Source: an uncultured Bdellovibrio sp. (lineage in GTDB: Bacteria > Bdellovibrionota > Bdellovibrionia > Bdellovibrionales > Bdellovibrionaceae). Taken from it: 64,000 nt of DNA. The position numbers and the translations under genes are program-made. Positions within the stretch are counted from its first letter, which is position 1. The number at the start of each line of letters is the position of its first letter. The stretch is taken from the NCBI GenBank assembly GCA_966211795.1, contig CBIHNW010000025.1:3787-67786 (forward strand), written 5' to 3'. Shown here in pieces: positions 12,978 through 64,000 of this stretch. The notes beneath the pieces are model-generated. The model was not told the origin of the DNA, did no database searches, and saw nothing but the letters and a program-made list of their open reading frames with translations.

Positions 12978-13159
12978 CTCCTTCTACTCACTTGGGAAGC
13001 GACGATCATGCCACCAGGGACGCAGTCAAAACGAAGTTGTCGCAATCTCAAGCCGCTCGCCGCATTTGAGCCGACTTCGGGCGAGCAGGTGTTGAAAAGT
13101 TTAACAGGGTGGAGGTGAGTTCGGGGGTTGGTTCGGGGTGATGTTTGGGGGTTTTGCTT

Positions 13160-13208
13160 GTGGATGGTGGTTTGTGGATGATGGTTTGTGGATGGTGGTT
13201 TGTGGGTG
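13160..13208. repeat. 14-bp G/T-rich tandem repeat (GTGGATGGTGGTTT, about 3.5 copies)
   Basis: Units read at 13160-13173, 13174-13187 (one mismatch) and 13188-13201, with a partial fourth copy. GTTCGGGG-type G-runs precede it. Confidence 0.8.
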
Positions 13209-13260
13209 AAGTTGATTCCTGAGTACGTTTGCTGGGTGGTTCGCCGGATTCACGACTGGC

Positions 13261-13400
13261 ATGAAGATCTGCGCTGCAATCTTTGAGCTCTGGACGAACA
13301 TCAAACCGTGCTCTTGAATCTTGAAGACTCCTGCGCGCATGAAGCTTTGCGCTGGAATTTTAGAATCCGCGATGCACATAAAGCTCTGCGGAATATTTCT
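13261..13400. repeat. degenerate tandem array of the TGAAGCTTTGCGC-type motif (copy 1, about 5 units)
   Basis: Motif hits at about 13262, 13283, 13322, 13340 and 13378, with spacing of 18-60 bp. The same motif family forms the array at 35461-35790. Confidence 0.7.
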
Positions 13401-13410
13401 GCTAATGGAA

Positions 13411-13658
13411 TATTTATTTGACAGCATTTTCGTTCGGAAGCGCTTGAGAGGATTTGTTTTTTTAGGCGTCTCTCCGATGCCTTTCATTCGCGAGCATTAG
13501 CTTTGTATAGCGATTACTGATTGTGATTCGAGACCGCCCATAAATTTTCAAATTCATTTGAGCAGCTAGCCCACGAGCGTGTTCGTTTTCGCTTTTAAAT
13601 CTCGTGATAAGGTCGCTTTGAATTTATGAGAATTATTTTTTTAAGAGGAGATTTGAAA
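13411..13658 (+). other. conserved non-coding leader of HNH module 1
   Basis: It shares ordered blocks with 35802-36045: TATTTATTTGACAGC, GATGCCYTTCATTCGC, TTGATTCGAGRCC, TAAATTTT, AGCAGC, CTCGTGATAAGGTC, AAGGAGAT. No conserved ORF on either strand. Confidence 0.55.
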
Positions 13659-14645
13659 ATGAAGATTGAAACAGATAAAAAATTGAGCAAGATTTTGAAT
13701 ATCAAAAATTTAAGCGATTCTTTGTTGCTTGAAAAAACGAACGGCCTGGTCAAAGAAGAACGCGAAGTGCTGACAAATCTTTTGCATCACTTCCGCGAGA
13801 TCGAGCGGCGTCGTCTTTTCTGCGATTATAAATATGAATCACTTCGCGAGATGCTCGTGAAGCATTTTGGATATTCGGATGATGAAGCCTACCGAAGAAT
13901 ATCTGCCATGTGGTTACTTAAAGACGTGCCAGAAGTGGAAGAGAAGATCACAAATGGCGAACTCTCGCTATCACACTTAAGCATGGCTCAGTCTTTCTTT
14001 CGAAAAGAAGCAAAGATCCATAAAGTTGAGATTTCGAAAGAAGATAAGCTTGGTCTTCTGGCAGAGATCAGCGAGCAAACAATCCGAGAAGCGCAGAGAA
14101 TTATGCTCGCCCAGTCTTCAGCTCCGGAGGAACTGCGGCCTGACAAAGTCACGATCATTAGCGAAGCAAAAATTGAATTCCGGTTCACCGCGAATCAATC
14201 CTTGGAATCCAAAATCTCGGAAGTCAAAGGCCTGCTCGCCCACAAGCATCCAAATCTATCGATGGGAGAACTGCTAGAAGTGCTTTGCGAAATATCCATC
14301 GAAGCTTTAAAAAAAGAGAAGACTTCGACATCAAAAACTGAAAAGATCGCGACGCCCAGGAGAAGCTGCGTCAGTGAAACTCAGATCAGCAGTCCTCACA
14401 GCGATGCGACGTCCGTGGTAAAACCAAAATCCCAAGCTCAAATCAACCGCGAAGTCTGGCAAGAAAGCCAGCATCAATGCAGCAACTGCGGATCAAAGCG
14501 CGGACTCGAAATCGATCACAGGCATCCCAAAGCTAAGGGCGGAGAAAACTGCAAAGACAATCTCCGCATCCTCTGCCGAAAATGCAATCAGCGTGCGGCT
14601 ATCAAAGAATACGGGCAACTCAAGATGGATCTCTACCTGAATTAG
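13659..14645 (+). CDS. HNH endonuclease (DUF222-like N-terminal domain plus C-terminal HNH/Zn-finger), copy 1
   Basis: The C-terminus CSNCGSKRGLEIDHRHPKAKGGENCKDNLRILCRKCNQRA contains CxxC...DH...N...CxxC. AAGAGGAG RBS before the ATG at 13659. Close paralog of 36046-37119. Confidence 0.85.
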   Translation: MKIETDKKLSKILNIKNLSDSLLLEKTNGLVKEEREVLTNLLHHFREIERRRLFCDYKYESLREMLVKHFGYSDDEAYRRISAMWLLKDVPEVEEKITNGELSLSHLSMAQSFFRKEAKIHKVEISKEDKLGLLAEISEQTIREAQRIMLAQSSAPEELRPDKVTIISEAKIEFRFTANQSLESKISEVKGLLAHKHPNLSMGELLEVLCEISIEALKKEKTSTSKTEKIATPRRSCVSETQISSPHSDATSVVKPKSQAQINREVWQESQHQCSNCGSKRGLEIDHRHPKAKGGENCKDNLRILCRKCNQRAAIKEYGQLKMDLYLN

Positions 14646-14812
14646 AAATCTCTTTCCACATCAGGCTCCGCGCGAAAGTCCGCAGGGGACCACCCAGTAT
14701 GGTGGTGCCCGTTGCGTGCGCTCTCTCCATGGATCTTAGAAAGCTGCTTCAGGCATCAAGCTTTGTGCGAAAGCAAGCGAAGGCATACAGCCCTCGCCTT
14801 CAGGCGGAGAAG

Positions 14813-34558: not shown

Positions 34559-34590
34559 AACCCGTTCCAAAAGAACGGGTTTTGTTTTTT
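34559..34590 (+). terminator. rho-independent terminator
   Basis: AACCCGTTC-CAAAA-GAACGGGTT followed by TTGTTTTTT. It lies about 160 nt after the upstream stop codon. Confidence 0.75.
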
Positions 34591-34632
34591 CTGCTTCCCG
34601 TCGGCGCGCTTGATCGGTCAACATCAAATGAT

Positions 34633-35421
34633 ATGGCAAAAATTGGCGTGTTTGATTCAGGTGTGGGTGGATTGACGGTTCTCAAAGAACTCGCCTCTCA
34701 CTTTCCCAAAGAAGAGTTTCTTTATCTCGGCGACACCGCCCGTCTGCCTTACGGCACCAAATCTGCAGAAACCATTCGCCAGTATTCGGAACAGATTCTG
34801 GGGTTTCTGACCGAGCGAAAGGTCGACGCCCTGGTCATCGCCTGCAACACGGCCTCATCGCAAGTGCCCAAGCGCGATTGGCAGGGCCTGCCGGTCTTCA
34901 ACGTGATCGAACCGGGTGCCGAGTACGCGGTCACCCACAGCCAGAACCAACGCATCGGCGTTCTCGGCACGCGCGCGCTGATCGCCAGTGGCGCTTACCA
35001 GAAGGAAATCCAAAAGCTCTCAGCAGGCGCCCAGGTCTTCGCGCAAAGCTGTCCTTTGTTCGTGCCGCTGGCGGAAGAGGGATGGCTCGAAGATCCGATC
35101 ACGAACTTGATCGCCTATCGCTACCTGCATCCCTTGCTCGAGTCGCAGATCGACACCTTGATCATGGGCTGCACGCATTATCCCTTGCTGAAAACCTCGA
35201 TCCAGCGAGCCTGCGGGGCGCATGTCAATCTCGTGGATTCCGGCAAAGCCTTGGCCTTGCAGCTGGAGAAGGCTTTTGACTCTCAACGTTTGCAACGCTC
35301 TTCTCGAGAGGCCGGAGAGATCCACATCCTGGCCACGGACCTGTCTTCGCACACGCAGGATCTCGCGGCGCAGATTCTGAATCCACTTCGGGTGGCTTCG
35401 TTTGAGGTTGTGCACTTGTGA
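34633..35421 (+). CDS. murI: glutamate racemase
   Basis: IGVFDSGVGGLTVL, LGDTARLPYG, the IACNTAS (Cys1) and GCTHYPLL (Cys2) motifs. Confidence 0.9.
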   Translation: MAKIGVFDSGVGGLTVLKELASHFPKEEFLYLGDTARLPYGTKSAETIRQYSEQILGFLTERKVDALVIACNTASSQVPKRDWQGLPVFNVIEPGAEYAVTHSQNQRIGVLGTRALIASGAYQKEIQKLSAGAQVFAQSCPLFVPLAEEGWLEDPITNLIAYRYLHPLLESQIDTLIMGCTHYPLLKTSIQRACGAHVNLVDSGKALALQLEKAFDSQRLQRSSREAGEIHILATDLSSHTQDLAAQILNPLRVASFEVVHL

Positions 35422-35460
35422 ATGGGATTTGGCTTGCGGAGGTTTTATCTCGTGTCGCGG

Positions 35461-35790
35461 ATGAAGTTTTGCTGTGATCTCGCGTAGGTCTCGCTCCGCA
35501 ACTGAAGCTTTACGCTGAAATCTTACGGGGATTTCTCCATAGCTGAACTTTATTTCTGCATCGTGGAACCGCTGCGCAAATGAAGCTCAGTGCCAGGCGG
35601 CTTCGATCTTTGCGATTGTCACGAAGCTTCGCGGCTGCATTTGAATTCCGCTGCGGACATGAAGCTTTGCACCGCCAGCGGCGGACGTGAATTTTGCGTT
35701 CGCATCAAGCTAGGCCCGCGCTGCACGCGAAGGCTTGCAGCCGTGTCTTGAGTGGCTTCTGCTGCGTGCGTGAAGCTCCGCGGAATTTTC
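35461..35790. repeat. degenerate tandem array of the TGAAGCTTTGCGC-type motif (copy 2, about 10 units)
   Basis: Motif hits at about 35462, 35503, 35544, 35581, 35622, 35642, 35660, 35688, 35705, 35728 and 35771, at 18-42 bp spacing. Confidence 0.7.
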
Positions 35791-35801
35791 GAGGTCATAG
35801 A

Positions 35802-36045
35802 TATTTTATTTGACAGCCATTCGGGGCGAGATCGCCTGATGTGAATTGGTTTTTCATGTTTTCTCTGTGATGCCCTTCATTCGCTCGCATTGGCTCTCTG
35901 TTGAGAGTGGCAATTTTGATTCGAGGCCCGTCGTAAATTTTTAAACTCGGAGTAGCAGCCAGACAGGCAGAGACCACGAATTCCGATTTAAAACTCGTGA
36001 TAAGGTCTCCGTGATATCACGATTTATTTTAAAGGAGATCTGCAA
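35802..36045 (+). other. conserved non-coding leader of HNH module 2
   Basis: Colinear conserved blocks with 13411-13658. It ends in AAGGAG plus 7 nt plus ATG. Confidence 0.55.
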
Positions 36046-37119
36046 ATGAAGACTGAGATGAACAAAGCGATGAACATTAAAAATTTGAACGACACTCTTC
36101 TCGTGCAAAAAACTGAAGTCTTGGTGAAAGAAGAGCGTGAAGTGCTGACGAAGCTTTTGCATTATTTCCGGGAGATTGAACGACGCCGCCTTTATTGCGA
36201 TTACAAGTACAAATCACTTCGCGAAATGCTGGTGAAACATTTTGGATATTCGGATCATGAGGCCTACCGAAGAATCTCTGCCATGTGGCTTTTAATAGAT
36301 GTTCCAGAGATGGAAGAAAAAATCACGAATGGTGCATTATCTTTAACTCACCTAAGCCTTGCACAGTCTTTCTTTCGAAATGAAGCAAAGATTCATCATG
36401 TTTCAATATCAAAAGAAGATAAGCTTGAGCTTCTCGCTGAGATTAGCGAGCAAACAATCCGCGAGGCGCAGAGAATTATGCTCTCGCAGTCTTCGGCTCC
36501 AGAGGAACTGCGGCCTGACAAGATGAGCGTCATCAGTGAGCAGAAAATAGAAATCCGGTTCGCCGCGAATAAATCATTGGAAGAAAAAATCTCGGAAGTG
36601 AAAGGCTTGCTAGCCCACAAGCATCCGAATCTATCATTGGGAGAATTGCTCGAGGTGCTTTGCGATCTTTCGATCAAAACCTTGAAGAAAGCAAAGACCG
36701 AGACCTTGTCGAAACAAAAGTCCGCGGCGCAAAGGAAAGGCCGCGTCACCAAAGTGCGAATGGATGATTCTCAAAAGCTTGAATCGCAGTCGAGCGTGAA
36801 CACAGATATTCATGATTCACGATCAGCGAAGCCAGACTTTCAAGCGCCACAAACAGCGACCACACCAAATATGGAGGACTCCGCCGAAAAGCTGAAACCC
36901 AAATCCCAAGCGCAAATCAGCCGCGAAGTTTGGCAGGAAAGCCAATACCAGTGCAGCAACTGCGGATCAAAGCGCGCGCTCGAGATCGATCACCTCAAGC
37001 CCAAAGCCAAAGGCGGCCTCAACACGAAAGAAAATCTTTGCGTCCTTTGCCGTGCCTGCAATCAGCGGGCGGCCATCAAAGAATTTGGGCAGCTCAAGAT
37101 GGATCTGTATTTGAATTAG
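36046..37119 (+). CDS. HNH endonuclease (DUF222-like N-domain plus HNH), copy 2
   Basis: By eye about 80% identical to copy 1 outside a variable linker. C-terminus CSNCGSKRALEIDHLKPKAKGGLNTKENLCVLCRACNQRA. Confidence 0.85.
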   Translation: MKTEMNKAMNIKNLNDTLLVQKTEVLVKEEREVLTKLLHYFREIERRRLYCDYKYKSLREMLVKHFGYSDHEAYRRISAMWLLIDVPEMEEKITNGALSLTHLSLAQSFFRNEAKIHHVSISKEDKLELLAEISEQTIREAQRIMLSQSSAPEELRPDKMSVISEQKIEIRFAANKSLEEKISEVKGLLAHKHPNLSLGELLEVLCDLSIKTLKKAKTETLSKQKSAAQRKGRVTKVRMDDSQKLESQSSVNTDIHDSRSAKPDFQAPQTATTPNMEDSAEKLKPKSQAQISREVWQESQYQCSNCGSKRALEIDHLKPKAKGGLNTKENLCVLCRACNQRAAIKEFGQLKMDLYLN

Positions 37120-37224
37120 ACGGGCTGACGAAGCCACGGTTGGGTTCGGCGGCCTTCCAGTGAAGTGGAAAGCCCTCTTGTGAATTGCAAACCCTTCCCG
37201 TCCGCCACATCGGGAGCCGCGGGA

Positions 37225-38418
37225 TTAAACGAAGATCTCCCTCGGTGGCGCGAATAGATTGTACGAGCTGGCCATCGAAGCGCCGTAGGCTCCAGCATCA
37301 GCCACCAGCAGCCAGTCGCCTTCTTGCACGCCTTTGAAGACGCGGTCTTTGCCGAGGAAATCTGAGGACTCGCAGACTGGGCCGACGACGTCGGCGGTGA
37401 ATTCTTCGCCGGCTTTCTTTTGCAAAGGCATGATGCGGTGGACAGCTTCGTACAGGGCCGGGCGAATCAGGTGGTGCATGCCCGAATTGCAGATCAGGAA
37501 ATTTTTGTCGGGCATTTTTTTGATATACTGCACCTGGGTGATCAGGACGCCACTGCGAGCGACCAGGAAGCGGCCGGGTTCAAGCTGAATTTGGGCCTCG
37601 AGACCCGCGAGCTCTTCTTTTAAAACTTGGCAATAATTTTCCATCCACTGCGCATCGGTCGAGGCATCCAGAGCGTAGTCAATACCAAGACCGCCGCCGA
37701 CATCAAAGGTCTGCATCGGAAAACCTTGGGCTTTCCAGGATTCGAAAACGCGGCGCTGGATTTGAATCGCCTCGCGCACGGCGGAAAATTCCATCAGCTG
37801 CGAGCCGATGTGGGAACTGACTCCCACCAATTGCAGGCTGGGATACTGTTTTAAAATTTCGAAAGCCAAAGCCAGCTGGGTTTCATCCATGCCGAATTTA
37901 TTTTCTTTGAATCCGGTCGAGATGTAGGGATGCGTTTTCGGATCGACGTTTGGATTGATGCGAAAAACGACCGAGACCTTTTTTCCCATTTGGTTCGACA
38001 CTTCGCCGATGCGCCGAAGTTCCGAAGCGCATTCGATGTTCAGCTGGCGGATGCCGGCCTTGAGACATTGCTGGATTTCGTCTTTGGTCTTAGCCACGCC
38101 CGAGAAAATAATTTGGTTGCCAAGAAAGCCAACTTCGAGCGCGCGGCGAAGCTCGCCACCGCTGACGATATCGACCCCGATATTTTGCGCCTTGAACAGT
38201 TTCAAAAGTTCGGGATGCGGATTGGCCTTCATGGCGTAATGCACGGAAAATCTTTGCGTCAACGCGCGGGCCACGTAAGACTGGAAAAGAAAAAGTCGGT
38301 CCTGCAAACCTTTTCGCGAATAGACATAGGCGGGCTCATCCCCGTCTTTCGCCAGATTTGAAAGACGCACACCATCGAGTTCCAATTCTCCATTTGAATT
38401 GTATTCCAGTTTTGACAC
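37225..38418 (-). CDS. lysA: diaminopimelate decarboxylase
   Basis: YAMKANPHPELL (PLP Lys), GGGLGIDY, CESSDFLGKD, GAYGASMASSYN. Confidence 0.9.
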   Translation of the reverse strand: MSKLEYNSNGELELDGVRLSNLAKDGDEPAYVYSRKGLQDRLFLFQSYVARALTQRFSVHYAMKANPHPELLKLFKAQNIGVDIVSGGELRRALEVGFLGNQIIFSGVAKTKDEIQQCLKAGIRQLNIECASELRRIGEVSNQMGKKVSVVFRINPNVDPKTHPYISTGFKENKFGMDETQLALAFEILKQYPSLQLVGVSSHIGSQLMEFSAVREAIQIQRRVFESWKAQGFPMQTFDVGGGLGIDYALDASTDAQWMENYCQVLKEELAGLEAQIQLEPGRFLVARSGVLITQVQYIKKMPDKNFLICNSGMHHLIRPALYEAVHRIMPLQKKAGEEFTADVVGPVCESSDFLGKDRVFKGVQEGDWLLVADAGAYGASMASSYNLFAPPREIFV

Positions 38419-56653: not shown

Positions 56654-56729
56654 GGGCCTGTAGCGCAGCTGGGAGCGCGCTTGCATGGCATGCAAGAGGT
56701 CGTCGGTTCAATCCCGATCAGGTCCACCA
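56654..56729 (+). tRNA. tRNA-Ala (anticodon GGC)
   Basis: Cloverleaf folded by hand: acceptor GGGCCTG/CAGGTCC with the G3:U70 alanine identity pair, D-stem GCGC/GCGC, anticodon stem CTTGC/GCAAG with loop ATGGCAT, T-arm GTCGG-TTCAATC-CCGAT, and an encoded CCA. Confidence 0.9.
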
Positions 56730-57768: not shown

Positions 57769-57973
57769 GATATGGGAGCCAACAAAATCTCGATTTCGGC
57801 ACTTCTTCTGTCGTTGGCGTAGTCATTTCGACGGAATGAGATTTTCTGAATTACAAACATTAGCACCCCGATCAACGTAGCATCCGTCAAACCGAACTAT
57901 GCCTTGGGTATTGACTCTGGAATACTCATTGCAAGATGGGCCGCTGGAATCAAATCGGCACCAGGGGGTCACT

Positions 57974-58492
57974 TTGAAAATTCGAAATTTTATTTTTGCT
58001 ATCGCATTTTTTCTTCTCGCCTATTTAACTGCAAGCGCCTGCCCATCCATCTGTGGCTCGCCAACCTGCAGCGGCTATGATGGTCCCGGCGGCCCATGCT
58101 ACAGCGGTCCCGGCGGACCCATGTATGCCGGACCCGGTGGCGCCATGTATGATGGCCCCGGCGGGCCTCGGTACTCAGGTCCCGGTGGTGCGTGCTACGA
58201 CGGCCCCGGCGGAGCCTGTTATGCGGGTCCTGGCGGACCTGATGATTCGGGCCCGGGCGGCGCATGTTACGACGGTCCCGGTGGACCTCGATATTCGGGC
58301 CCCGGTGGTGCGTGCTACGATGGACCGGGCGGACCGCTTTATGATGGTCCCGGTGGCCCCCGATATGACGGCCCTGGTGGCACTTGCTACGACGGACCGG
58401 GCGGCAATTGTTATAGCGGCCCCGGGGTTTACGGATCTGGCGCTCACTGCCCTCGCATCTGCACCAATCCTTGTCCCTGCCCAAACAACTAA
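57974..58492 (+). CDS. secreted GPGGxxYx octapeptide-repeat protein with Cys-rich caps
   Basis: TTG start 5 nt after AGGGGG. Signal peptide (M)KIRNFIFAIAFFLLAYLTASA. Then come 14 consecutive GPGG-x-x-Y-x units flanked by CPSICGSPTCSG and CPRICTNPCPCPNN. Confidence 0.6.
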   Translation: MKIRNFIFAIAFFLLAYLTASACPSICGSPTCSGYDGPGGPCYSGPGGPMYAGPGGAMYDGPGGPRYSGPGGACYDGPGGACYAGPGGPDDSGPGGACYDGPGGPRYSGPGGACYDGPGGPLYDGPGGPRYDGPGGTCYDGPGGNCYSGPGVYGSGAHCPRICTNPCPCPNN

Positions 58493-58941: not shown

Positions 58942-59829
58942 ATGAAAGCTAATAATTTGAAAGCTGATGAGGGTCCCATGGGCGAATTCATTCAACATGT
59001 TTCTGATACCTCTGCTTGGGTCGCACACTATCGTGCGATTGAATCCGAGCGCCCCGACTCCTTATTTAATGATCCCTTTGCTCGAATTTTGGTGGGCGAT
59101 CATGCGTTGAGTGTCGAGAAACTACAGTCTGAAGCGACAAAGTGGACTCGTTGGACAGTCGTGATGCGCACTTACATCATCGACCAAATGATCCAGGATC
59201 TGATTTCAAAGGGAGTCACCACATTTTTAAATCTGGGTGCAGGACTGGATAGCCGCCCTTATCGGATGAGCCTCGGAGCTGAAGTTCAGTGGATTGAGGT
59301 GGATTTTCCTCACATCATCGAACACAAGCAAAAGATCCTTCAGAAATTCAGCCCGAGCTGCAAACTGGAAAGTATTGGTCTCGATTTGTCGAACCGGGCT
59401 TTGAGGCTTTCTCTGTTTGAAGAGCTTGCCCACAAGTATCCGCAGATTGCTGTTCTAACTGAAGGAGTTTTGCCTTATCTAACACAGGAACAGGTTTCAG
59501 ATCTATCGGAAGATTTGATTCAGCAATCCAGTTTCAAATACTGGATTTGCGAATACATCTCTAAGAAATCCTATCGATATTTAAAAGATCCAAAGCGAAT
59601 GAAAGCTTTGAAAAATGCTCCATTTGAATTTTACCCGGAAAATTGGATGGGGTTTTTTGAGGAGCGTGGATGGCATCTAACGCAATCGCAGTTTTATACC
59701 GAAATTTCTGAAAAACTTGGACGTCCAACGCCGATACCGAAAGTTTTCAAATTTTTTGAACTCGTAATGGGAAAAAAATGGGCAACCCCTTTTAAGCAAA
59801 TGTCTGGCTTTTTGCTTTGGGAAAGATAA
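58942..59829 (+). CDS. class I SAM-dependent O-methyltransferase (LCM / TIGR00027-like)
   Basis: TSAWVAHYRAIESERPDSLFNDPFA and the SAM motif FLNLGAGLDSRPYR. The start is uncertain (58942, 58978, or the ORF-track GTG at 58924). Confidence 0.8.
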   Translation: MKANNLKADEGPMGEFIQHVSDTSAWVAHYRAIESERPDSLFNDPFARILVGDHALSVEKLQSEATKWTRWTVVMRTYIIDQMIQDLISKGVTTFLNLGAGLDSRPYRMSLGAEVQWIEVDFPHIIEHKQKILQKFSPSCKLESIGLDLSNRALRLSLFEELAHKYPQIAVLTEGVLPYLTQEQVSDLSEDLIQQSSFKYWICEYISKKSYRYLKDPKRMKALKNAPFEFYPENWMGFFEERGWHLTQSQFYTEISEKLGRPTPIPKVFKFFELVMGKKWATPFKQMSGFLLWER

Positions 59830-59873
59830 TTCGATGACGGAATCTACGGGCGGCTCATAATCACTCGTTTCGA

Positions 59874-60248
59874 ATGAAGAAGGCGCTCGATTGGCTAGCG
59901 CAATGTATATTTTTCGTACTTCTTTTTTATGTGACAGCCGCTCACGCCGAACCGATCAGCAGCGCAGGACTCATTTGGATCAATGCCAACGAGGCAATGA
60001 AGACTTGCGATCGGATGTTTAGTTCGAGCATCAAAAAGGCTGGTGAAATTGTTCTTGATATTCTGATAGATGAATCCGGATTGGTGAAAAATGCGACCCC
60101 AAATCAAAAGAAGTCTTCTATTAGAAATGAAAAATTAACTTCCTGTGTGATCAACTCTTTTAATGGCCACACTCTTCAAATGGATGCGACGGGAAAAGAG
60201 AAAACTATTTCGGCAACCTTTCAATTTCCAAGAAAATTTGACCAGTAA
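59874..60248 (+). CDS. small secreted protein, possibly with a TonB-C/AgmX-like C-terminal fold
   Basis: Signal peptide ending TAAHA|E. The pattern GEIVLDILIDESGLV...C...TISATFQF loosely resembles TonB_C-type domains. Confidence 0.45.
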   Translation: MKKALDWLAQCIFFVLLFYVTAAHAEPISSAGLIWINANEAMKTCDRMFSSSIKKAGEIVLDILIDESGLVKNATPNQKKSSIRNEKLTSCVINSFNGHTLQMDATGKEKTISATFQFPRKFDQ

Positions 60249-60337
60249 TCACTGATTTAATCAGTCGAGATTGCAATCAAGAGGCACTTGGAGGTTGACC
60301 GTTTATTGTTGAATAGCCGAAAGTATATAGAATAAAT

Positions 60338-60793
60338 ATGAGGAAAGTGCTCACTCGAATCAAAAATTTCTGTGGAATCTTAATCAGCAAAAGGCATTTC
60401 TTTCCGAAAAATTACCTTCTGTGGGTCTCTCTTTACTCTCTGATTGAATATTACAGACCAACAACGAATAATCCGTTCAGCAGTGAGCGCTTTAGTTCAA
60501 GCAAGCTTAGCTTTAACGAAGTTTTCCTGATCTTGCTCATTGCGCATCCTATTCTCATTTACATCGATACCTATAGCTTAGCTAAATTTTTAAAATCGAA
60601 TTTAGTCAGGGGGCGTTTCTACATCTGCATAGGCTTGGGAATATCCTTTGTCCTTTTCAAAATCCACATGGATAGATTTGAACATTTTGGCGACGACGGG
60701 CTTTTGTATTCGCTATTTTATGGATTGTCGTATCTGACGGTATTGACTTCGATTGTCGTTTCATTTTTCTTAGGAAGCCGCATCGTACGGTGA
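60338..60793 (+). CDS. hypothetical membrane protein (AT-rich region)
   Basis: About 4 hydrophobic segments. No family recognised. Confidence 0.4.
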   Translation: MRKVLTRIKNFCGILISKRHFFPKNYLLWVSLYSLIEYYRPTTNNPFSSERFSSSKLSFNEVFLILLIAHPILIYIDTYSLAKFLKSNLVRGRFYICIGLGISFVLFKIHMDRFEHFGDDGLLYSLFYGLSYLTVLTSIVVSFFLGSRIVR

Positions 60794-60987
60794 TCTTGGC
60801 GAATAATTTCGCCGCCCTTCCAACCACTTCGCTGACCTCAAATTTGATCAGTCGAGCTTAAGCACTTCTCTGGTCTGCGCAATTCCCGCCCATGATAAGC
60901 TCAGGATGCGTCGCCTTCTGAAGTGATAATTGTTTTGAACTTTCACCGGAAAAGAAGAATGGTAGGCAGAATTCATTGAGGACTTCT

Positions 60988-61362
60988 ATGAGAAAATATT
61001 TCGGCATTTTGGTGCTTCTTTCGTTATCTCAGGTGGCAGCCGCAGCTTCAGACGGAAGCTGCACTTCTAACTTTGGATTTGGGGTTATTCCAAATGGAGC
61101 AACCGTCTCTGGTTATTCGACTTCAATGTCGATGCCTGGCATTCCATGCTCAATTACGACGGTGACCTGCATTGATGGCCATTTCAACGGTCCAGATCTT
61201 TATCCAAGCTGTTCAGACATGATGCAAAGTTGCGATGGCATTCCCAATGGTGGCACAGCATCGGGCTATATTTCGCCCGTAGCTCCTTGCATCTTCACAA
61301 CAGTAACCTGCACGAATGGGGCACTGTCAGGCCCGATGCCATCTCCTTCTTGTACTGAATAA
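60988..61362 (+). CDS. secreted Cys-rich protein with an internal duplication
   Basis: GAGGA RBS and a signal peptide. Two homologous halves: IPNGATVSGYS..PCSITTVTCIDGHFNGP..PSC and IPNGGTASGYISPVAPCIFTTVTCTNGALSGP.PSPSC. Confidence 0.55.
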   Translation: MRKYFGILVLLSLSQVAAAASDGSCTSNFGFGVIPNGATVSGYSTSMSMPGIPCSITTVTCIDGHFNGPDLYPSCSDMMQSCDGIPNGGTASGYISPVAPCIFTTVTCTNGALSGPMPSPSCTE

Positions 61363-61518
61363 AAAGATGACCGCCACAGTTTGCGTATGACGTGAAGCCG
61401 CCATCTATTCGTTGGTGGAATCACACTTTCGAGCCCGTGTTTGGTGTCCGAATAGCAGCCGAGCAATGCTAGAAAAACTTTTGTTGAACATCTAGACCGA
61501 CGTTATTAAGCTCAAACT

Positions 61519-62238
61519 ATGATGTATCAACTGAGCTTCGCTTCATTATTCATTTCCATATTTCTACCTTTTATCTCGCAGGCTAGCTGGACGATGGATC
61601 CAAATTTGAAATCTGCAATCAAGTGCAGCCAGGAACTTTTTGGTGAAGAGGTGACGCCGGTAATTTGGAAACATGGCAATGACTTGCTAGCGATCTGCTC
61701 TTCGAGCAAGGTCAAACCAAACTCAAAGTTACTTTTAAAAGAAATGTTCCAAATCGAAGTGCGTCTGAATGGGAAAGAGCAGCGGCTAGCCTACGAGGGC
61801 GAGGTTGGCAACAAACCAAAAGAAATAAAGTTTTCTGGTGACGACATTTCAATCACCTCATTTTTAGGAGAAGGCGATTCGGCTTATTATACCCAGACTA
61901 TCACTTGCACTGGCAACAATTGCCAACTTTCAAAACCCAAGTGCCTTTTAAAGCATGAGACCAGTTCGCAAGCTGCAATCAATGAATTCGATAAAAAACT
62001 GACTCAAGCTGTGCCGGATAAAAAACTGCAAATATGGTCCTCCTATTTTTCCGGCGCAAAGAAAAATTCTAAAGCGGATAAAATTCTACGTGAAGCCATG
62101 CTTGGTAACGACCACGCAAAGAAACTTGTAACGACTGATGTCGGCGCTGACGGCGCAGATGCAGAAATTCAAGCCCAGCTAGCGTCTGATATCGAAGAAG
62201 CTCGAAAAATTTGCATGGATGTTTCAAAGAAGCCCTAA
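61519..62238 (+). CDS. secreted hypothetical protein
   Basis: Signal peptide MMYQLSFASLFISIFLPFISQA. No family recognised. Confidence 0.5.
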   Translation: MMYQLSFASLFISIFLPFISQASWTMDPNLKSAIKCSQELFGEEVTPVIWKHGNDLLAICSSSKVKPNSKLLLKEMFQIEVRLNGKEQRLAYEGEVGNKPKEIKFSGDDISITSFLGEGDSAYYTQTITCTGNNCQLSKPKCLLKHETSSQAAINEFDKKLTQAVPDKKLQIWSSYFSGAKKNSKADKILREAMLGNDHAKKLVTTDVGADGADAEIQAQLASDIEEARKICMDVSKKP

Positions 62239-62540
62239 CTCGAATACCGTGTGAGATTCGTTTACCATTAGCCTGTCGGCAAATAACTAACGGCCTTGAT
62301 ACCTGAATTCACAACACGATGGTTTGCCAGTATTCAAAATAAATTGCGTGCGAGCTTACCTGAACTTGTGAAAATCATCCAAGCAAAGGAGCGCATTCGA
62401 ACACAGGTGCCTGAGTGACAAACTAGGTGCTAATAAACTGTATTGAACATTCAAGTAGTTGAAGACTTTGATAGAGACTTTTCCAAAGGGATAACTTACT
62501 TTTTCTTTTGAAAGAAGTCCCGAAAGCTCGGATAGACATC

Positions 62541-62762
62541 TCAGCAATTTCGAAATCCGATTATAAGCGAGAAAGGTCCAAAGATAAACAGCACTACCCA
62601 TTGTTTGGTACTGAGTGCACTTGGAGTTCCCATTGCTCGGACTCCGGCCGGGAGAATCACTCCAAACCAAAATATTGTCGAAGGCGCAAGAAGGATTGGC
62701 CCGAAATTTTTTTTTAAACCAATATACGCGTTCTTCAACATCCACAACGGCACCTTGCCCAA
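62541..62762 (-). CDS. hypothetical small membrane protein (or a fragment)
   Basis: Two hydrophobic segments. It competes with the overlapping 62356-62772 ORF, which has a less protein-like composition. Confidence 0.3.
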   Translation of the reverse strand: MGKVPLWMLKNAYIGLKKNFGPILLAPSTIFWFGVILPAGVRAMGTPSALSTKQWVVLFIFGPFSLIIGFRNC

Positions 62763-62817
62763 AATGGAGCAAACAAGAATATGACTGCCTTACAAATAGT
62801 TTCAGCGAGAGAACTAA

Positions 62818-63081
62818 CTATAATTTTTTTCGGAATTTTAATCCAAAATATAAAAGCAAGTCGATGACTACAATACCGACTATATATTTAGTTGCCATTT
62901 TCTTTCCTTCATCTCCACAAAATTGTTTTGCAGAGACCGTGAATATTCCAGATACGCACCCGTCAAATGCGTAATCAGCATAAATCACCGCTGGTAGCGA
63001 AATCATTAAAAGTATCAACCACTTTTTGCTTGAAGCATTTCCCATACAGAAAATTTTAACTAGTCTCTTACGATTCTCCAA
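62818..63081 (-). CDS. hypothetical small membrane protein
   Basis: Two hydrophobic segments, in an AT-rich context. Confidence 0.3.
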   Translation of the reverse strand: MENRKRLVKIFCMGNASSKKWLILLMISLPAVIYADYAFDGCVSGIFTVSAKQFCGDEGKKMATKYIVGIVVIDLLLYFGLKFRKKL

Positions 63082-63175
63082 TATCTATATGGACTAGGAA
63101 ATGTATTTATACTCTTTAGAGCTTGAAACAAAAAGTGCCATCGCTGCCACTAATAATTCCATCTTCTATTTTGAT

Positions 63176-63655
63176 TTAAGATTTGCTCTGGAATTCATCA
63201 CGAGCCTTCTGAAGCTTTGCATATGCCGCTTTATAGCCTTCCTGGAACTCTTCCCTATTCAATGGAATTCCAAAACAAAATATGAATGGCTTTGAGTCTC
63301 TTTCAACATAAACGTCAATGCGTCCTCCAAACCAACTCTTCAGACGGGTGACCTCAGCCCACGAAAAAAACTGGTCGTCGAAACCTATGCCCCGATCCGT
63401 AGCGGTCACATTTTTTTTAAACCTAAGCACCCATGGCAAGGTGAAAACCAAACCTACAACAGCAAGTAATGCAATAAAGCCTGCAATAAATTTTGAATTT
63501 GTTTCCGCATAATTTGGAGACAAAAAGATTAAAATTATCAACATAGTCGAACAGAAAACGGCGATGCCAATGTGGTGCGCCCTACTTACCCTTGTGCGAT
63601 GGCCAACATTTGAGAAAATAACTTTTTCGCCCGTATTATTTTTGATCTTCATCAT
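63176..63655 (-). CDS. hypothetical membrane protein (2 TM plus a soluble C-terminal domain)
   Basis: Hairpin TM pair followed by a roughly 70-aa charged domain. Confidence 0.45.
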   Translation of the reverse strand: MMKIKNNTGEKVIFSNVGHRTRVSRAHHIGIAVFCSTMLIILIFLSPNYAETNSKFIAGFIALLAVVGLVFTLPWVLRFKKNVTATDRGIGFDDQFFSWAEVTRLKSWFGGRIDVYVERDSKPFIFCFGIPLNREEFQEGYKAAYAKLQKARDEFQSKS

Positions 63656-63793
63656 TTAACTCATTAGCTTTCTCATTCACATTCCTAGCATTTTTATCTT
63701 CTTGAGTTCGAATATGAAGTCTCTAACCTGGTCGGGCAAAAAGAATCTAGCTGCTAGAACTTTCATTCAAAGAGAAAAATTCAATTATTCCAC

Positions 63794-64000
63794 CTAACCG
63801 ACATATTTCAGATAAAAGCCAAAGGCGAACCAAAGCAATGCTGAAAACACAGTCACAAACTGTATTTTTTTGGTAAGGGGATCAATGGGCATTCCCCATC
63901 CAGCTTTAGTTAAAAATTTCTCTTTCAAGGAATTGTCTTTCATCGGTCTGGAATACTTTTTTTTGCAGTCGACTGAGCCTAATATTGCCCCAAATTGCAA
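63794..64000 (-). CDS. hypothetical membrane protein, N-terminus outside the window
   Basis: The ORF is open to the right edge, with a hydrophobic C-terminal segment. Confidence 0.3.
   Translation of the reverse strand: MQFGAILGSVDCKKKYSRPMKDNSLKEKFLTKAGWGMPIDPLTKKIQFVTVFSALLWFAFGFYLKYVG

Follow-up and report, generated by a model that had tools for sequence, protein, structure and literature searches.

The 64,000-nt window analysed here, a stretch of one contig of an uncultured Bdellovibrio sp., contains two paralogous genes for an HNH nuclease, HNH-1 and HNH-2, each lying behind an array of degenerate tandem repeats (module 1 and module 2, respectively). The repeats have a period of 39-41 nt and run in register into a conserved TTGAC box (box A), which is followed at a constant distance of about 186 bp by a putative promoter of the nuclease gene. 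The array is tentatively read as an iteron- or operator-like row of docking sites that the cassette's own protein would bind, and we put the probability of this reading at about 0.4. The constant 186-bp phased spacer between box and promoter is a more surprising observation than the array itself.

The module 2 array occupies positions 35422-35790 on the + strand and comprises about ten degenerate units of 39-41 nt with a conserved 16-nt core, CATGAAGCTTTGCGCT. The module 1 array (13260-13416, +) has four units, at 13260, 13299, 13338 and 13377, with an exact period of 39 nt, and every unit of either array lies on the + strand. With a position weight matrix (PWM) refined from a seed, the units of module 2 start at 35460, 35501, 35579, 35620, 35658, 35726 and 35769; weaker matches fall at 35601 and 35703, and decayed units at about 35422, about 35542 and 35690-35705. 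Positions 35422-35459, the 38 nt that follow the murI stop codon (35421) and precede the first scored unit, were judged by eye to be one such decayed unit, so that the array fills 35422-35790 and begins 1 nt past the stop codon. Good successive units are 38-43 nt apart, or multiples of this distance where a unit has decayed, and the autocorrelation of the bases is maximal at 39 nt in module 1 and at 41 nt in module 2; short spacings of 17-23 nt are due to weak half-unit matches. The original prediction, made from the letters alone, had placed about ten degenerate units at 35461-35790 and a smaller array at 13261-13400. Both were found there, and the irregular spacing of 18-42 bp ascribed to them gives way to a tandem period of 39-41 nt.

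When 28 units are aligned, the complete unit measures about 40 nt and reads CATGAAGCTTTGCGCTGG-aaTCTTG-...-GCG.a. Mean pairwise identity between units is 66% over the first 16 positions, a value inflated because the units were located by their core, and 41% over the remainder even with shifts allowed. The array is non-coding, as had been proposed: no open reading frame (ORF) accounts for it, the ATG of the first module 1 unit meets a stop after 18 codons, and the repeat period is no fixed multiple of three. Just 5' of the module 1 array lies a 14-nt G/T-rich tandem repeat (TTGTGGATGGTGGT, 3.4 copies; 13158-13205, +), which scores 10-13 bits against the unit core and may be an expanded core mutated by A>G and C>T changes. 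The G/T-rich stretch around this repeat (13100-13215) has a GC skew of +0.39 and a T-over-A skew of +0.27; a deamination signature was considered for it and rejected, the skew being seen in module 1 and not generally.

Throughout the window, TGAAGCTTTGCGC with up to three mismatches has 57 matches against 34 +/- 6 expected, and the earlier worry that such matches might be no commoner than base composition predicts can be laid aside. Ten of the 21 PWM matches of at least 12 bits fall inside the 0.7 kb of the arrays, and the 11 outside them (7.5 +/- 3 expected) are background. A hidden Markov model (HMM) of the 40-nt unit reaches E < 0.2 in the two arrays only, and on the + strand only; since the model was trained on these same units, the informative part of this result is its silence elsewhere. 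The possibility raised in the original prediction that the motif is a genome-wide REP-like element unlinked to HNH genes finds no support within the 64 kb, where the two HNH-linked arrays contain all the significant copies, and for this reason a repeat of the REP/BIME type was rejected. A scan of metagenomes for two adjacent units returned 120 loci, all of them unrelated repeats and none with an HNH relative; their periods are mostly multiples of three and were read as coding, which makes the scan uninformative. Downstream of HNH-1 there is a single unit-like sequence, CATCAAGCTTTGTGCGAA (14754-14771, +). This match, already noticed at about 14754, is real, with 15.5 bits and an expectation below 0.001 for that 167-nt flank. 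The downstream flanks of seven relatives have no significant unit-like match, and units on both flanks of the cassette are ruled out save for this one match after HNH-1.

The array is tied to box A by a fixed distance. In both modules 41 nt, or one repeat period, separate the last unit from TTGAC, and box A is in register with the array because the nearest unit sits one period upstream of it. The proximal unit starts 40-42 nt upstream of TTGAC in modules 1 and 2 and also in the related loci L081, L084, L085, L001 and L074. The last two are distant, with 49% (L001) and 36% (L074) protein identity, and their spacers are otherwise unalignable with those of the window; that they nevertheless keep the proximal core CA(T/A)GAAGCTTTGCG argues for selection on the core. 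The registers seen by eye in L005 and L050 are weak, and L082 and L083, which are paralogous and come from the same sample, hardly differ in the segment that precedes box A. The pattern TGA(C)AGC..TTT..CG occurs three times in 128 kb (the window on both strands), in two units and in the module 1 box A, and a common descent of units and box A is thereby suggested but not shown.

About 40 loci in the Bdellovibrionota, with proteins down to about 35% identity, share a common layout that begins with box A, an A-tract followed by TTGAC. In module 2 this box (35791-35817, +) consists of an A/T tract and then TTGACAGC, with TTGAC at 35810-35814, and GGTCA at 35794 forms an imperfect inverted repeat with TGACA across N13; in module 1 it lies at 13410-13425 (+), with TTGAC at 13418-13422. 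At a constant 185-189 nt downstream of TTGAC follows box E, with the motif AAAAtTT..TTTAAAAC-nn-RTGnTAnnnT, and a Shine-Dalgarno sequence and ATG are found 20-100 nt beyond it. The module 2 box E (35976-36006, +) reads AAAA..TTTAAAAC-tc-GTGaTAAGGT, with TG at 35998-35999 and the hexamer at 36001-36006, while that of module 1 (13583-13613, +) has TG at 13605-13606, 187 nt from TTGAC, and the hexamer TAAGGT at 13608-13613. Judged by its sequence, box E is an extended -10 promoter-like element and the putative promoter of the HNH messenger RNA. Box A was tried as a sigma-70 -35 element and rejected, TAnnnT being present at the right spacing in only 3 of 40 loci, and a generic promoter scan recognised nothing at box A or upstream of the array. 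Box A is invariant and often makes up half of an inverted repeat, features that a protein site would be expected to have. These inverted repeats are TGTCA-N13-TGACA in the window's clade, CGTCGAAA-N~13-TTTGACG in another clade, and TTGACnnnGTCAA in L058 and L067.

The spacer between the two boxes (35815-35997 in module 2, 13423-13604 in module 1) is non-coding and about 186 bp long, and its sequence is extremely divergent between loci. No ORF is consistent in any frame or on either strand across 42 loci, and a 67-aa minus-strand ORF called in L081 is not conserved. The A/T content of the spacers, phased at about 11 bp in module 2, has a periodicity of 11.0-11.25 bp, which is reached by 0 of 1000 shuffles, and its phase relative to box A is coherent (R = 0.83, n = 29). 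We read the spacer as DNA that is probably helically phased and constrained in length, not in sequence. A DNA-architectural link between site and promoter fits these data because the distance is constant and A/T phased and there is neither an ORF nor an RNA signal. Two further observations concern this region. Locus L027 is an apparent natural deletion variant: at about 2440-2500 its operator-like box and TTGACG precede the ATG by only about 35 nt, and the 186-nt spacer and box E are missing. In the 5' untranslated region of HNH-2, just past the putative -10, lies a perfect 12-bp palindrome, CGTGATATCACG (36010-36021), which does not occur in module 1.

The length conservation of the leader could also reflect a function as RNA, with the array, or array and leader together, acting as a CRISPR-like or omega-RNA-like guide partner or as a structured 5' leader. 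The HNH domain is closest in sequence to those of IscB, Cas9 and group II intron maturases, and the guide RNA of IscB likewise lies 5' of its gene. An RNA role is nevertheless most improbable and has been largely refuted in silico. The RNA stability of 40 spacers, compared with shuffles, has a mean z of about 0 on both strands, and RNAalifold consensus structures for two clades reach -8.6 and -10.9 kcal/mol with a covariation term near zero, so that a structured cis-regulatory leader was rejected. The array folds no better than shuffles (z of -0.3 on the + strand and -1.35 on the - strand), Rfam returns no family at gathering score and, at E < 10, nothing above noise, and the lack of a recognisable promoter upstream of the array points the same way; the suggestion of a repeated RNA element in the original prediction is thus not sustained. 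Its verdict that the array is not CRISPR is upheld, since core identity is only 66% and no cas genes or leader lie nearby. Moreover, the inter-core parts, with their TCTTG and GCG blocks, are homologous to one another, and the "spacers" of the array are for this reason not unique. With IscB/HEARO elements the cassette shares an HNH domain that is most IscB-like and a conserved non-coding region 5' of the gene. This candidate was rejected as well: the protein has no RuvC or PLMP domain, the IscB match covers the HNH region only (42 bits against a cut-off of 175), and there is neither an Rfam HEARO match nor an RNA structure signal.

The array, the leader and the HNH gene behave as a single genetic unit. 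All close HNH relatives with upstream sequence (6/6) carry the array, always on the strand of the HNH gene and each time in a different genomic context, with 3-5 units in L081, 5 in L083, 3-4 in L084 and 7-9 in L085. The orthologous junction between murI and a decarboxylase gene is empty in L289 and L290, with 3 nt between the convergent genes, and measures 270 nt in another relative; in a sister strain (MurI 95% identical) it holds an AAA_14/DUF4143 gene and no units. Since the relatives share the array and the junction is found empty, positions 35422-37224 are a single insertion of about 1.8 kb between housekeeping genes, and the array makes up its 5' portion. The orthologous site lacks array, leader and gene together, so they travel or arise as one unit. 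The linkage of array and HNH gene assumed in the original prediction is in this way borne out, both by the relatives and by the empty site, and the inserted cassette, the register with a family-wide TTGAC box and the constant distance of about 186 bp to the promoter go beyond it. The 3' flank of the cassette (37120-37224) ends at the stop codon of the convergent decarboxylase gene and contains no significant unit. No target-site duplication is visible. The neighbours of the cassette are murI, an IMPDH-family gene and a pyridoxal phosphate (PLP)-dependent decarboxylase gene, the stand-alone HNH being the sole adjacent nuclease, and the ORF upstream of module 1 has no relatives by protein search.

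As a separate observation, the murI/PLP-dependent decarboxylase junction (34582-38418 in the window; L287, L289, L290) is an insertion hot spot. In addition, many contigs of metagenome-assembled genomes (MAGs) break off no more than about 300 nt before the HNH start (L013, L015, L029, L031, L048, L052, L063, L068, L076, L082 and L086), which would be expected if a shared leader or array breaks short-read assemblies. Tandem repeats are also present downstream of the HNH gene in L083 (4030-4160, units of about 20 nt resembling AGAGCTCCGTGTGCG) and in L085 (4000-4290, units of about 70 nt).

HNH-2 (36046-37119, +) encodes a protein of 357 aa, in which AlphaFold places an N-terminal helical domain (1-225), a disordered linker (228-281) and a C-terminal HNH domain with the motif CxxC...DH...N...CxxCN. 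Its paralogue HNH-1 (13659-14645, +) was called mechanically as an ORF from 13626; the ATG at 13659 (MKIETDKK...) is preceded by GAGGAG and is most likely the true start. Pfam recognises only the C-terminal HNH domain in both proteins. The catalytic residues D315, H316, N330 and N339 are intact and invariant, as are the zinc-binding residues, and the linker that joins the nuclease to the DNA-binding-like domain varies in length. The N-terminal domain is modelled with a pLDDT (the confidence score of the model) of 88, and its top three fold matches in the PDB are ParB/Noc DNA-binding domains (7ng0, 7o0n, 6y93), which lends weight to the earlier description of this helical domain as DNA-binding-like. 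No protein motif of the family is better conserved than the putative recognition helix, (D/E)(E/Q)AYRRIsAM, and no DNA motif better than TTGAC, and the pairing of the two gives an indirect argument that one binds the other. In L001, L013, L068 and L082 the DEAYRR codons (GATGAAGCTTACCG), at about +186 to +222 of the ORF, score 12-14 bits against the unit core; this likeness is probably due to chance because it is absent from the window's own HNH genes, and the candidate was dropped.

Relatives of these proteins were collected from genome contigs by an alignment query, a single-protein query having found none. The family is abundant in Bdellovibrionota MAGs, often with several copies per genome, and the N-terminal domain alone matched 4848 representative clusters. 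Viral contigs in IMG/VR gave matches to the HNH domain only and no full-length relatives. One of 37 family members has a DUF222 match in Pfam (E = 0.05), which was noted in a comparison with DUF222-HNH, REP13E12-like proteins.

Intact catalytic residues next to a disordered linker of variable length would also suit an explanation in which the nuclease targets the units, or once did so and left them as relics. Its HNH domain would cut or nick at a fixed distance from box A and repair would duplicate about 40 bp, leaving the array as a record of activity; alternatively, the array would be a recombination substrate through which cassettes spread or are homogenised by gene conversion. One repeat period is also the distance that separates the proximal unit from box A, relatives have empty sites where the cassette is inserted here, and L082 and L083 are near-identical upstream of box A. 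Furthermore, a comparison of Bdellovibrio-like (BALO) genomes found 10-13 strain-variable HNH endonucleases per Peredibacter genome (PMC13147790). Against this stand the absence of a decay gradient from box A and of a visible target-site duplication, and the fact that units do not lie on both sides of the cassette, save the one after HNH-1. We consider this explanation fairly improbable. A shade less probable still is a self-written record, in which the cassette would be a hitherto undescribed kind of selfish element of the Bdellovibrionota whose ParB/Noc-like helix-turn-helix HNH nuclease binds box A and nicks, through its linker, at a fixed distance of about 40 bp, so that repair adds units one at a time. 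The array would then double as a sink or operator, and the 186-bp spacer would be a pre-bent loop that couples array occupancy to the promoter.

The favoured explanation remains that of docking sites. The anatomy of the arrays, the fact that they are linked to the gene and inserted with it, their register with box A, the constant spacing, the stronger conservation of the core and the resemblance of the fold are all observed; from them we infer the identity of the binder and the effect of its binding. The units and box A would be docking sites for a sequence-specific DNA-binding protein, most likely the HNH protein of the cassette itself, through its ParB/Noc-like helix-turn-helix domain. A unit spacing of about 40 bp corresponds to about four helical turns, and the 4-10 direct repeats that run in register into box A could load several copies of the protein beside it. 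The outcome may be autorepression at a distance by way of the phased spacer, which would set the expression of a potentially toxic nuclease, and the array may also keep the nuclease at its own locus.

Several findings weigh against this explanation. The ParB/Noc fold matches have probabilities of 0.87-1.0 and agree with one another but have weak E-values of 0.07-0.4, and Pfam gives no ParB-type support for the N-terminal domain. The unit type does not track protein similarity: L074, at 36% identity, shares the unit, and L002-L005, at 47-50%, have a different upstream box. The units carry TGAAGC in place of TTGAC, and since the recognition helix is near-invariant the same protein may bind them poorly. 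The unit HMM fails to match the box A segments; that the units are copies of the box A segment is partly supported by the specific pattern they share, and is not claimed because the model misses box A. PWM scores show no gradient of unit quality with distance from box A. The locus was found in DNA metagenome runs and in no RNA run, and the copy number of the array is the same in the three runs that hold it. In other clades the same place is occupied by repeats of unrelated sequence, with periods of 33-35 nt in L038 and L003, 41 nt in L005 and 54 nt in L050, by 7-nt microsatellites in L058, L067 and L051 and by (GTTT)n in L085, to which the 14-mer of module 1 may be added, and about half of the loci have no detectable array. 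These other repeats look as much like a mutational tendency as like a designed site cluster and, together with the arrayless loci, are the strongest argument that the position is simply prone to tandem duplication.

It is thus possible, though on balance unlikely, that the array is a functionless minisatellite, a neutral and decaying by-product of slippage or repair-linked duplication just upstream of box A, which a tightly bound protein or a nick at box A could cause. Arrays of unrelated sequence and varied period at one position, copy numbers of 3 to 10 among paralogues, heavily decayed units and the arrayless half of the loci would all be accounted for. Such a by-product should not, however, have a core that is far better conserved than the rest of the unit, nor should all of its units keep one orientation and phase, nor should L001 and L074 retain the proximal core and its distance of 40-42 nt from box A despite their diverged spacers.

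The failure of unit type to co-vary with the HNH protein would likewise suit a host factor, a nucleoid-associated protein or global regulator that insulates or silences the cassette independently of the HNH protein. The in-phase A/T tracts and the A-tracts beside box A are typical of nucleoid protein sites, and the array lies directly against the end of murI, so that read-through from there would run into the cassette. The core, however, has no other occurrence in the 64 kb, whereas the site of a global regulator should recur, and its G+C-rich sequence is unlike the consensus sites of H-NS or Fis/IHF. A host factor is accordingly quite improbable as the binder.

Strain-variable HNH endonuclease genes are numerous in predatory Bdellovibrio-like bacteria (PMC13147790). 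One large family of these nucleases is now seen as a compact cassette that comprises an array in some clades, a TTGAC box, a 186-bp phased spacer and a putative extended -10 promoter. If array and box are docking sites of the protein itself, the cassette offers a tractable model of a selfish nuclease held in check and also a source of new pairs of DNA-binding modules and binding sites. Should the array be mere debris of slippage, it would still point to a site of unusual DNA dynamics beside a nuclease gene.

Elsewhere in the window, nested tandem repeats of 24, 48, 72 and 120 nt, rich in GGCCC/GGCGG, lie at 58076-58425 within an ORF (57899-58492, +) that looks like a Gly/Pro-rich repeat protein. 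A tRNA-Ala(GGC) gene is located at 56654-56729; within a few kb of it the G+C content falls from about 0.52 to 0.38-0.45 (59000-64000), and this stretch may be a foreign island.

Among known systems, the centromere sopC of plasmid F consists of 43 bp tandem repeats, each with an imperfect inverted repeat, that are bound by SopB. The array described here shares with sopC/SopB and with ParB/ParR-type arrays the direct repeats of about 40 bp, an imperfect inverted repeat in each unit, a position beside a gene whose protein is predicted to have a ParB-like helix-turn-helix fold, and the variation in copy number, and, as in iteron and centromere arrays, its repeats are regular, tandem and direct with a conserved core (39-41 nt, 16-nt core). 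By contrast with sopC/SopB, the cassette has no ParA-type ATPase, is chromosomal, multi-copy and dispersed, and has far more degenerate units; its protein has an HNH nuclease domain, whereas a ParB CTPase domain cannot be recognised in it, and binding is putative here. No ParA or Rep gene was found in the 1.8-kb cassette, and membership in the partition systems fails because there is no ATPase partner. KorB of RK2 is a ParB-family protein that represses over long range from its operator OB. The operator proposed here would resemble KorB-OB and the lac, gal and ara repression loops in acting on a promoter from about 100-200 bp away. It differs from them in that the distance is fixed at 185-189 bp across divergent loci, with a spacer that is A/T phased at 11 bp, and in that no second operator has been identified at the promoter. 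In the contingency loci hmw1A and hmw2A of Haemophilus, 7-bp tandem repeats lie upstream of the genes. The likeness lies in promoter-upstream tandem repeats whose number could tune expression, and some relatives of the cassette do have 7-nt microsatellites; the 40-nt degenerate units, however, slip rarely, and their number was constant in three runs.

The cassette as a whole is comparable to free-standing homing endonuclease genes, in which a lone selfish nuclease lies between conserved genes and relatives have empty sites; the HNH gene is likewise present or absent at an otherwise conserved locus. With homing endonucleases such as I-TevI the protein also has in common a DNA-binding domain, a flexible linker and a nuclease, and self-regulation is plausible: I-TevI represses its own expression through an operator that resembles its target, which provides a precedent. 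In contrast to homing endonucleases, this family is cellular (Bdellovibrionota), has several diverged paralogues per genome and has no known homing site, and no counterpart to the upstream repeat array is known from homing endonuclease genes. Taken by analogy, the array would be most like sopC- or iteron-type arrays and operators that act at a distance, such as that of KorB, and the cassette that carries it resembles a free-standing homing endonuclease gene.

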